Shown: positions 10,481 through 10,960 of the stretch, in pieces
Layout: every line of letters begins with the position of its first letter
Position numbering within the stretch: position 1 is the first letter of the stretch
Assembly: GCA_028703305.1 (NCBI GenBank)
Contig: JAQVNC010000015.1
Coordinates: 1-18,141, forward strand
Reading direction: 5' to 3'
Origin: Patescibacteria group bacterium
GTDB taxonomy: Bacteria; Patescibacteriota; Patescibacteriia; Patescibacteriales; GWC2-42-12
DNA: 18,141 nucleotides
Notes under the pieces: model-generated
Told to the model about the DNA's origin: nothing
Seen by the model: only the letters and a program-made list of their open reading frames with translations
Database searches by the model: none
Program-made: the position numbers and the translations under genes

Positions 10481-10509
10481 CTAACGAATCAACGAATTAA
10501 ACAACAAAT
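10481..10509. repeat. Left arm of the bipartite inverted repeat flanking the GxxExxY ORF
   Basis: CTAACGAATCAACGAAT (10481-10497) is the exact reverse complement of 10944-10960. ACAACAAAT (10501-10509) is the exact reverse complement of 10923-10931. Confidence 0.85.
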
Positions 10510-10510
10510 A

Positions 10511-10921
10511 TCACGAATAATTCACTGATTCTTTATTGTTTGGATTTAATATTCTTAATGTTTTTACTCCGTAAGCGGTAAAATTAATTATTAAAGCTAA
10601 TTTATGCCCTGTCACTTTTAAATATTCTTTGACTTGGTTGATATTCTTTCTTGAAAAATAATTCCCCCTTTTTAATTCAACTATAATTTTATCTTCAACT
10701 AAAAAATCTAAATAATATGTGCCTATTTTTTCTTCGTGAAAAATTATATTATACGGTAGCTGTCTCTTGTAATTAATTTTTCTTTCAACAAAAATTTTTT
10801 CTACCGCCTTTTCATAATGTTTTTCCTGATAACCATACCCCAACTCATTAAATACTTCAAACATTATACCAACTATATTATAGCTTAAATCTTTATAAAT
10901 AATTTCTACCTCCTTTCTCAT
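10511..10921 (-). CDS. GxxExxY-family protein (PD-(D/E)XK nuclease-fold superfamily)
   Basis: Signature G30-Y-Q-E-K-H-Y36, then D72 (LDFLVED) and E82-L-K84 (VELK) as in PD-(D/E)XK, plus NQVKEYLK...LALIINF. The gene is much more AT-rich than its neighbours. Confidence 0.85.
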   Translation of the reverse strand: MRKEVEIIYKDLSYNIVGIMFEVFNELGYGYQEKHYEKAVEKIFVERKINYKRQLPYNIIFHEEKIGTYYLDFLVEDKIIVELKRGNYFSRKNINQVKEYLKVTGHKLALIINFTAYGVKTLRILNPNNKESVNYS

Positions 10922-10922
10922 A

Positions 10923-10960
10923 ATTTGTTGTATTCGTAGTCAGATTCGTTGATTCGTTAG
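10923..10960. repeat. Right arm of the bipartite inverted repeat flanking the GxxExxY ORF (overlaps the ligA stop codon)
   Basis: ATTTGTTGT (10923-10931) and ATTCGTTGATTCGTTAG (10944-10960) pair with the left arm. An extra ATTCGT copy sits at 10932-10937. Confidence 0.85.

Follow-up and report, generated by a model that had tools for sequence, protein, structure and literature searches.

A predicted GxxExxY nuclease gene nested in a palindrome of ACNAAT words between ligA and gatC of a Patescibacteria group bacterium

The contig JAQVNC010000015.1 of a Patescibacteria group bacterium (assembly GCA_028703305.1), of which positions 1 to 18,141 were analysed (this whole stretch is hereafter called the window), carries between the housekeeping genes ligA and gatC a 480-bp unit, at positions 10481-10960, in which a small open reading frame (ORF) of the GxxExxY (PD-(D/E)XK) type is enclosed by an inverted repeat. 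This unit is an instance of a compact cassette with a nuclease-in-a-palindrome design. That is, the gene occupies the loop of a palindrome, and each of the arms is made up of about four copies of a short word, (T)ACNAAT, set out in a 2+2 arrangement. Such a bracket is a conserved, orientation-specific and sequence-specific feature of a GxxExxY subfamily in at least three phyla. The nuclease-in-a-palindrome architecture is apparently undescribed, as no description of flanking word palindromes around GxxExxY genes was found in the searchable literature. The components of the locus, in window coordinates, are the following.

10957-13128, minus strand: ligA (NAD-dependent DNA ligase), the upstream host gene, identified by its Pfam domains.
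10957-10959, minus strand: ligA stop codon TAA, inside the outermost word of the 5′ arm.
10481-10960, minus strand: the whole inserted cassette (5′ arm, GxxExxY ORF and 3′ arm), filling the ligA-gatC spacer.
10922-10960, minus strand: sense 5′ (upstream) arm with four ACNAAT words, abutting the ORF start codon; in plus-strand reading the words are ATTTGT (10923-10928) and ATTCGT (10932-10937, 10944-10949 and 10952-10957).
10511-10921, minus strand: GxxExxY/PDDEXK_3 ORF of 136 amino acids (aa), co-directional with ligA and gatCA.
10814-10834, minus strand: codons of the G30-x-x-E33-x-x-Y36 motif (G30 and E33 invariant, Y36 at least 90% conserved).
10670-10708, minus strand: codons of the PD-(D/E)XK core, D72 ... 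E82-x-K84 (LDFLVEDKIIVELK), invariant.
10481-10521, minus strand: sense 3′ (downstream) arm with four words; in plus-strand reading ACGAAT (10484-10489, 10492-10497 and 10513-10518) and ACAAAT (10504-10509).
10474-10480, minus strand: right insertion edge, consisting of a four-base spacer (10477-10480) and the gatC start codon (10474-10476).
10183-10476, minus strand: gatC, downstream host gene, identified by its Pfam domains.
8716-10179, minus strand: gatA, downstream host gene, identified by its Pfam domains.

The gene order on the minus strand is thus ligA, the 136-aa ORF, gatC and gatA. A preliminary description of this DNA, made from the letters alone, had reported a perfect bipartite repeat of 17 and 9 bp around the ORF, and its anatomy is correct to the base: CTAACGAATCAACGAAT (10481-10497) complements 10944-10960 exactly, and so does ACAACAAAT (10501-10509) with 10923-10931. 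Also as described, three ACGAAT words stand on either side of the ORF (beginning at 10484, 10492 and 10513 on the left and, as ATTCGT, at 10932, 10944 and 10952 on the right), the ligA stop codon lies within the outer right arm, and only the bases 10477-10480 separate the outer left arm from the gatC ATG. Each arm is completed by one ACAAAT, giving four words of the ACNAAT type; in the 3′ arm, the word nearest the ORF runs into the ORF stop codon (10511-10513). In its extended form the inverted repeat measures 41 nt with 78% complementarity, and it heads the ranking of the four inverted repeats that were reported in the window. When up to 3 mismatches were allowed, the 17-mer matched nothing in the 18-kb window other than the two arms. 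The G+C fraction of the unit is 0.235-0.25 as against 0.39-0.47 in the adjoining ligA and gatC stretches (200-nt windows; about 0.42). The contrast noted in the preliminary description is therefore real but smaller than was thought, since the value of about 25% inside the unit stands whereas that of about 52% for the flanks does not.

Evidence that the words and the gene belong together comes from other members of the family. When genomes were scanned with an alignment of homologues, the best 80 further GxxExxY loci were obtained, from Patescibacteria, Bacteroidota, Planctomycetota and other groups; the counts of hairpins and genes given here cover these and the other fetched loci (loci are cited below by L numbers and proteins by P numbers). 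When the 120 nt upstream of each ORF were aligned to the reverse complement of the 120 nt downstream, the median score over 78 loci was 35, compared with 19.9 for a cross-locus null, and 26 of the 78 reached at least the 99th percentile of this null, which is already raised by the sharing of words among all loci; in some cases (L011, L086) the flanks pair perfectly over 35-38 nt. Words were also counted around 76 GxxExxY ORFs. Over the 60 nt before the ORF, forward words of the form AC[GAT]AA[AT] numbered 63, 78 and 30 per 20-nt bin, and in the first 60 nt downstream reverse-complement words numbered 84, 65 and 27, against a background of about 4 per bin and 4-10 per bin in the opposite orientation, which amounts to an enrichment of forward words of about 15- to 20-fold over the 60 nt upstream. 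At least three ACNAAT words upstream combined with at least three reverse-complement words downstream were present at 39 of 74 loci, whereas the same was true of only 1 of 257 control ORFs taken from the same loci (Fisher p = 6e-29). At least three words were found on at least one side at 57 of the 74 loci, and the reversed arrangement at none of them.

The consensus of the word is (T)AC-N-AAT, the central base being G in 47%, A in 37% and T in 16% of instances under a search pattern that allowed only these three bases; C also occurs at this position. Spacings of mostly 7-8 nt and 10-11 nt between words produce the 2+2 layout, and the same 2+2 ACGAAT arrays are seen in Bacteroidota and Planctomycetota. 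The layout of the Bacteroidota copies (caACGAATaACGAATtttnACGAATaACGAATctg) is the same, with arms that stand 20-60 nt from the ORF. When non-redundant loci were searched blindly for AT-rich, strongly repeat-bracketed ORFs 70-220 aa in length, 26 of the 27 ORFs returned were GxxExxY genes. The one exception was a GIY-YIG gene with a different repeat, and the idea that ACNAAT hairpins enclose other cargo as well was rejected on this basis.

Two further observations on bracketed nuclease genes may be recorded. At L032 (4470-4830), a 96-aa GIY-YIG gene (PF01541, E=4e-11) lies inside a different inverted repeat, GTCATTCTGGCTTGGCCAGAATC ... GATTCTGGCCAAGCCAGAATGAC, and similar 'TGTCATTCCCGCG...CGGGAATCC' hairpins without an ORF are found in the ligA-gatC and gatC-gatA spacers of L087, L094, L096, L126, L129 and L133. 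The L032 gene and its palindrome may be a second system in which a nuclease sits in its own palindrome, and the gene hints that small nucleases nested in this way could form a general class. At L033 (2700-3700), downstream of a GxxExxY gene, a four-word reverse arm together with neighbouring sequence is present in three tandem copies at 95-nt spacing (3449, 3544 and 3639), and further copies occur upstream, beside a run of N.

The preliminary description placed the ORF in the GxxExxY (PD-(D/E)XK) group, and profile searches bear this out: it matches PF13366 (E=5e-29, 101.4 bits, cut-off 22) and TIGR04256 (E=2e-28, 99 bits, cut-off 35) over its full length. In an alignment of 24 diverse homologues (A1), no variation was seen at the residues D72, E82 and K84 (LDF...VELK) or at G30 and E33, and Y36 is conserved in at least 90%. 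The AlphaFold2 model has a pLDDT of 89.3, and its Foldseek neighbours are Cas4 SSO0001, lambda exonuclease, MGME1 and Hjc, with TM values up to about 0.5; since these are generic PD-(D/E)XK proteins, substrate specificity is not inferable from them. The ORF has no match by sequence among solved structures and none in PHROGs, an exact look-up found no record of the protein, and PADLOC returned one weak match (PDC-M08B, E=0.0013). The family is very large, with 12,134 clusters at 50% identity that match the PF13366/GxxExxY profile at E<=0.001, and a 2012 survey of PD-(D/E)XK proteins lists the function of PF13366 as unknown (PMC3424549). Two tandem GxxExxY domains make up many proteins 260-275 aa or so in length (e.g. 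P0133, P0152, P0154, P0159 and P0161), a hint that a protein with one such domain functions as a dimer. A side observation on the ORF concerns a Shine-Dalgarno-like AAGGAGG in its codons 3-5 (window 10899-10921; sense ATGAGAAAGGAGGTAGAA). A GGAGG core is preserved as a nucleotide string in L001, L002, L098, L136 and L006 while the encoded residues differ (RKEVE, KGGVN, QGGAN), and it is not followed by a canonical start codon, so that the start assigned to the ORF is provisional.

A metagenome scan with GatC provided 64 loci, onto which LigA, GatC, GatA and the ORF were mapped. These show that the 480-bp unit is, as had been proposed, an insertion, the ligA-gatC spacer measuring 1-12 nt where no insert is present. 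Empty spacers of this length (TAAcATG, TAAataattttATG, TAAttttattttaatATG) were found in L089, L092, L095, L099, L100-L108, L123 and L130, with GatC proteins 81-89% identical to that of the window, and the sense string TTTTATG at the gatC edge of the cassette is also present in empty sites, e.g. TAAATAATTTTATG. The orthologous cassette, with a spacer of 480 nt, is carried by the window and by L001-L005, L098 and L136. GatC is 84-89% identical to that of the window in relatives that carry a cassette at ligA-gatC, and the ligA stop codon of the orthologous loci is TAA or TAG. The closest homologues of the ORF (93%, 91% and 82% identical) are all located at a ligA-ORF-gatC junction and have the same kind of arms. 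Other GxxExxY lineages have been found at the same junction, with word arms of their own, in L104 (44% identical to the window ORF) and L121 (39%). In L112, L113, L115 and L139, a decayed copy is left in the form of a truncated GxxExxY remnant, in which a five-word left arm is kept, the right arm is lost and another small repeat element (a miniature inverted-repeat transposable element, MITE) interrupts the sequence. Word hairpins without an ORF occupy the junction in L117, L119 and L124, and the spacer of further relatives contains unrelated inserts. Different GxxExxY lineages have colonised the ligA-gatC junction independently of each other, and some of the copies have decayed. A neighbour-joining tree of LigA plus GatC, based on about 246 aa and poorly resolved, shows carriers and non-carriers intermingled inside a single shallow clade.

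The neighbouring gatC-gatA junction presents similar states. It measures 3-9 nt when empty (3 nt in the window), but contains in L131 a 102-nt hairpin without an ORF, made up of 4+4 ACAAAT words, and in L088 a GxxExxY cassette with an in-frame stop; the hairpin and the cassette share the same boundaries (TAATT|ACAAAT ... ATTTGT|AAT..ATG). Inserts of other kinds were also observed in these two spacers. Between ligA and gatC, genes for Cys-rich proteins with an N-terminal hydrophobic segment are present in L138 (613-1070; 139 aa) and L111 (932-2501; 429 aa). Between gatC and gatA, a spacer of 557-671 nt in L092, L095 and L100-L107 holds two small co-directional ORFs (113 and 108 aa in the 671-nt form, 113 and 70 aa in L095), and that of L002-L005 holds a 103-aa asparaginase-like fragment.

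The palindromes also exist without the nuclease gene elsewhere. ORF-less word hairpins were located in intergenic spacers of L016 (2087-2174), L028 (5550-5625 and 5985-6061), L035 (262-336) and L055 (5589-5656), as well as in L059, L070 and L072 and, upstream of a gyrB-like gene, in L011. In L035 (980-1011), a word cluster upstream of an rpoA-like gene runs straight into reverse-complement words. Over 400 kb outside the cassettes, 42 word clusters were counted compared with 6.4 in composition-keeping shuffles, and 6 forward-reverse hairpins compared with 0.00, the density of word clusters in the flanks being about one per 10 kb. Hairpins built of other words, likewise without an ORF, were seen in the same set of loci: arrays of the CATAAC/GTTATG type in the same operon spacers of L118, L121, L125, L131/L134 and L112/L115, TTTTCAA words in the gatC-gatA spacer of L093 and L098, and GTAGCT words in an operon spacer of L133. 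Among the other inverted repeats of the window itself are an AT-rich one at 14669-14749, with 33-nt arms (85%) and a 15-nt loop, in a spacer, and, in the next spacer, among pilin-like genes, a G+C-rich palindrome with 16-nt arms (94%) at 15847-15881.

Selection was assessed on five orthologous cassettes. Codon positions 1, 2 and 3 of the ORF vary at 18, 14 and 65 of 137 sites, respectively, and the arms at 15 of 79 (7 of 38 in the 5′ arm and 8 of 41 in the 3′ arm), which is less than the third positions (p=3.5e-5). As the arms vary less than third positions and codon positions 1 and 2 vary least, both the arms and the protein are under purifying selection in this lineage. One word shows a coordinated difference in L002, where ACTAC is found with GTAGC instead of the ACAAC with GTTGT present elsewhere, the window representing a mismatched intermediate. 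With regard to expression, 68 of 74 cassettes are co-directional with both neighbours, compared with about 59% expected (p=6e-10). The arms adjoin the start and stop codons of the ORF and can even supply the end of the upstream gene, namely the ligA stop codon or, in L163, the last glyA codons. A promoter scan of the unit gave counts at the level of shuffled sequences, and a terminator scan found no terminator inside it. We infer that the nuclease gene, promoterless on this evidence, is expressed by read-through from the host operon. The G+C content of the ORF is below that of its flanks in 75 of 75 loci (0.294 versus 0.398).

The explanation that we favour would tie these features together as follows. 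The word arrays would be the recognition sites of the encoded predicted nuclease, which probably acts as a dimer on two-fold symmetric DNA, and the ORF-less hairpins would be either non-autonomous derivatives of the cassette or its targets. The cassette would spread rarely, through recombination initiated by the nuclease, that is, homing or cassette exchange via shared arms; excision and insertion without target duplication would be an alternative route. The gene would be expressed by read-through of the host operon, and would be tolerated only when fitted exactly between a stop codon and the next start. The arms may also be able to pair in the transcript, and an RNA-level effect could then arise as a by-product. 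Taken jointly, recognition of the word arrays by the protein, homing or exchange into hairpins and read-through expression have, in our estimation, about an even chance of describing the mechanism correctly. The presence of the L131 hairpin and the L088 cassette at one junction is compatible with homing-type cleavage of an uninterrupted allele. A broader proposal, which we put forward more tentatively and would rate as somewhat less than evenly balanced, is that the GxxExxY subfamily and the ACNAAT palindromes could be partners in a widespread and hitherto overlooked nuclease-repeat system of Patescibacteria, Bacteroidota and Planctomycetota, in which the dimer would recognise the arrays and either home into the ORF-less hairpins or mobilise them.

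A number of results weigh against this explanation, in particular as far as mobility is concerned. No target-site duplication was visible when filled and empty sites were compared at the ligA-gatC and gatC-gatA junctions, and an apparent duplication of TA or AATT is explained by the word consensus and extension of the palindrome. No copy of the 17-mer other than the two arms is present in the 18-kb window, and among 182 fetched loci the 15-nt arm core is found only in the orthologous cassettes. The proteins P0093 and P0095, which are each represented on 22-23 contigs, always occur at one locus apiece. Paralogues within the same genome are 46-61% identical and resemble each other no more than pairs from different genomes do, for which the median is 45%. 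Of 12 distant relatives on viral contigs, two, the closest, have a few of the words; such more distant PF13366 members at 30-33% identity have none, and the association is thus limited to a subfamily. Moreover, long vertical persistence with purifying selection on arms and protein would fit a domesticated host function equally well. The preliminary description had offered, as one of two readings, a selfish mini-element with terminal inverted repeats (TIRs). The anatomy of such an element is indeed there, in the form of empty sites, a family-wide bracket, ORF-less hairpins, decayed copies and unrelated lineages at one junction, but the signs of an active transposon are missing, since there is no target-site duplication, the 17-mer is unique in the window and the paralogues are diverged. 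That one junction has received at least three GxxExxY lineages and is also found empty, with a hairpin or with a decayed copy is in keeping with infrequent events that strongly favour certain sites or pre-existing hairpins. Cassette exchange through shared arms would also fit the history of the junction, which does not resemble that of ordinary transposition. On present evidence the cassette is not very mobile, its movement being slow.

Some loci show rearrangements, or other small nuclease genes, next to such cassettes or to transfer RNA (tRNA) genes. In L174, L176 and L178 (2900-4465), a gene for a large serine recombinase is located directly downstream of the P0095 GxxExxY gene, itself after dnaG-rpoD, while in L173, L177 and L180 the identical P0095 gene is followed by the cassette reverse arm, a tRNA and a GIY-YIG gene; the breakpoint between these strain forms is the cassette reverse arm. 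At L006 (7230-7720), a 92-aa ORF of the GIY-YIG type lies between a partial (about 75 nt) and a full copy of a tRNA-like sequence (aggtcgcctagtggccgatggcg...), which looks like an insertion into or beside a tRNA gene with duplication of its 5′ part.

The second reading in the preliminary description was that the arms form a long stem in the polycistronic RNA, giving an RNase III-type processing site that would uncouple ligA from gatCA. In the form considered here, a stem of about 35 bp in the ligA-ORF-gatCA transcript would serve as such a site or stabilise the messenger RNA, in the manner of 23S rRNA intervening sequences or of co-transcribed Correia/NEMIS repeats, and the ORF would simply ride in the loop. 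A stem is thermodynamically possible: the sense arms form a duplex of -35.0 kcal/mol, compared with -11.8 +/- 3.1 for shuffled arms, and the outer stem is present in the minimum-free-energy fold of the 506-nt sense RNA (z=-3.25). In the five orthologues 95.9% of cells pair, and wobble pairing on the sense strand could accommodate each of the five one-sided changes. The near-constant sense orientation of the cassettes within operons and the position of ORF-less hairpins in intercistronic spacers would also be in keeping with a role in the transcript. However, the antisense duplex is equally stable (-36.7 kcal/mol), and the arm mismatches at 58 loci comprise 67 sense-wobble and 68 antisense-wobble transitions, in addition to 279 transversions, so that nothing in them singles out one strand as RNA. 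Two-sided pair changes were absent from the five orthologues, and shuffle controls were not exceeded. Furthermore, the ACNAAT word and the 2+2 arrangement have been kept from phylum to phylum, with proteins that share only about 40% identity, a constraint for which a purely structural stem has no need. The lack of wobble or strand preference, together with the conservation of the words across phyla, favours recognition of the arms by a protein, the encoded one being the simplest candidate, over a purely structural role in RNA. Scans with Rfam at the gathering threshold found only a tRNA-Ser in the window, a permissive scan of 10400-11050 gave matches at chance level only, and scans of 40 cassette loci yielded tRNAs and no ribosomal RNA (rRNA). 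The likeness to 23S rRNA intervening sequences drawn in the preliminary description extends to the long stem around an ORF, and identity with such sequences was rejected on account of the operon location and the finding of tRNAs only in the 40 loci. We therefore regard an element acting at the RNA level as unlikely, while RNA pairing of the arms in the read-through transcript is plausible as a secondary effect.

An alternative that keeps recognition by the protein is that the partnership has been domesticated, the nuclease maintaining or acting on resident intergenic palindromes in the fashion of REP-associated tyrosine transposases (RAYTs) and their hairpins (REPINs), as a stable chromosomal gene and not as a selfish insertion. 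Vertical inheritance of the cassette at ligA-gatC among relatives with GatC 84-89% identical would agree with this, as would the purifying selection on protein and arms, the restriction of identical proteins to a single locus, the age of the paralogues and the dispersal of ORF-less hairpins in spacers beside housekeeping genes (gyrB, rpoA), and the REPIN/RAYT system provides a precedent (PMC3116915). Against it stand the presence, absence, decay and replacement of cassettes at one junction among close relatives, the systematic AT-richness of the ORFs relative to the host, and the several loci per genome among the best 80, where few RAYT copies per genome are usual; nor is any link to a host phenotype or pathway evident. 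On balance a domesticated role seems improbable to us. That the palindrome is a local accident, arising by coincidence or replication around an ordinary small gene, could be argued from the uniqueness of the 17-mer in the window and of its 15-nt core in orthologues among the fetched loci. However, shuffled sequences gave a mean of 0.07 matches to the 17-mer and did not reach 2 matches in any of 200 shuffles, between 39 and 57 of 74 independent loci show this architecture as against 1 of 257 controls, and the arms are conserved beyond synonymous sites. This idea is hardly credible, a chance palindrome being ruled out by the tests of flank complementarity, word position and bracket frequency.

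These results give a concrete and testable context to a subfamily of a very large family of unknown function that is common in Bacteroidota and Candidate Phyla Radiation genomes. The context consists of the word (T)ACNAAT, a fixed palindromic layout of 2+2 by 2, ORF-less counterparts and an exact stop-to-start insertion in operons. The function of the family is thereby narrowed to a biochemical question, namely the binding or cutting of word arrays by the protein, in DNA or RNA, and the data point to a new type of nuclease-associated palindromic repeat. Cassettes and hairpins explain some of the variation in the size of intergenic spacers in very small genomes, and, for annotation purposes, such ORFs and hairpins are insertions able to separate translationally coupled housekeeping genes. 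If true, the GxxExxY-palindrome partnership would be a functional parallel of REPIN/RAYT built on an unrelated enzyme.

In REPIN/RAYT, doublets of REP sequences form hairpins and are associated with the RAYT transposases (Bertels and Rainey 2011, PMC3116915). The cassette resembles this system in that short extragenic repeats are arranged as inverted, hairpin-capable doublets dispersed between genes, and in that one small enzyme gene, which has persisted for long by vertical inheritance and is subject to purifying selection, is flanked by repeats in inverted orientation. It differs in its enzyme, which is of the PD-(D/E)XK type (PF13366) and not an HUH/Y1 (IS200/IS605-like) transposase, in its arms, which consist of four short words and not of one REP palindrome, and in the several diverged GxxExxY paralogues per genome. 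MITEs and their parent TIR transposons, e.g. the Correia/NEMIS elements of Neisseria, offer another parallel. Like them, the cassette is a short unit with terminal inverted repeats, polymorphic in presence and absence between relatives, with ORF-less, hairpin-like putative derivatives in intergenic spacers that would be co-transcribed with their neighbours. Unlike them, it has neither a target-site duplication nor a near-identical multi-copy family, its protein is a predicted minimal nuclease of 136 aa and not a recognised transposase, and its arms abut start and stop codons exactly.

Free-standing homing endonuclease genes include PD-(D/E)XK types such as I-Ssp6803I. With these the cassette shares a small nuclease gene between conserved genes, present or absent among relatives and AT-rich compared with the host, and an insertion that splits a palindromic target would, in parallel with homing endonucleases, render the carrier allele immune. 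However, such genes are not normally bracketed by inverted word arrays, and no recent spread of the cassette was detected. The ORF-containing 23S rRNA intervening sequences, of the Leptospira/Coxiella type, encode a four-helix-bundle protein (S23p/PF05635). They, too, place a small ORF within the long complementary stem of a longer transcript, a plausible RNase III substrate, whereas the cassette lies in a protein-coding operon and not in a 23S helix, encodes a protein of another family and has arms that are sequence-conserved word arrays. In Flavobacterium columnare, a gene for a 'four helix bundle protein', of the 23S intervening-sequence protein type, is separated from its neighbours gmk and nadD by spacers of about 35 nt (PMC5524665, Table 5). 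It is wedged into an operon in the same tight fashion as the cassette. The ORF belongs to the GxxExxY (TIGR04256)/PDDEXK_3 (PF13366) family itself, being full-length and high-scoring with its motif and D-E-K core intact. The cassette is thus not an rRNA intervening sequence, and it is not a member of the REPIN/RAYT or MITE/transposon pairs either, which are its closest functional parallels.

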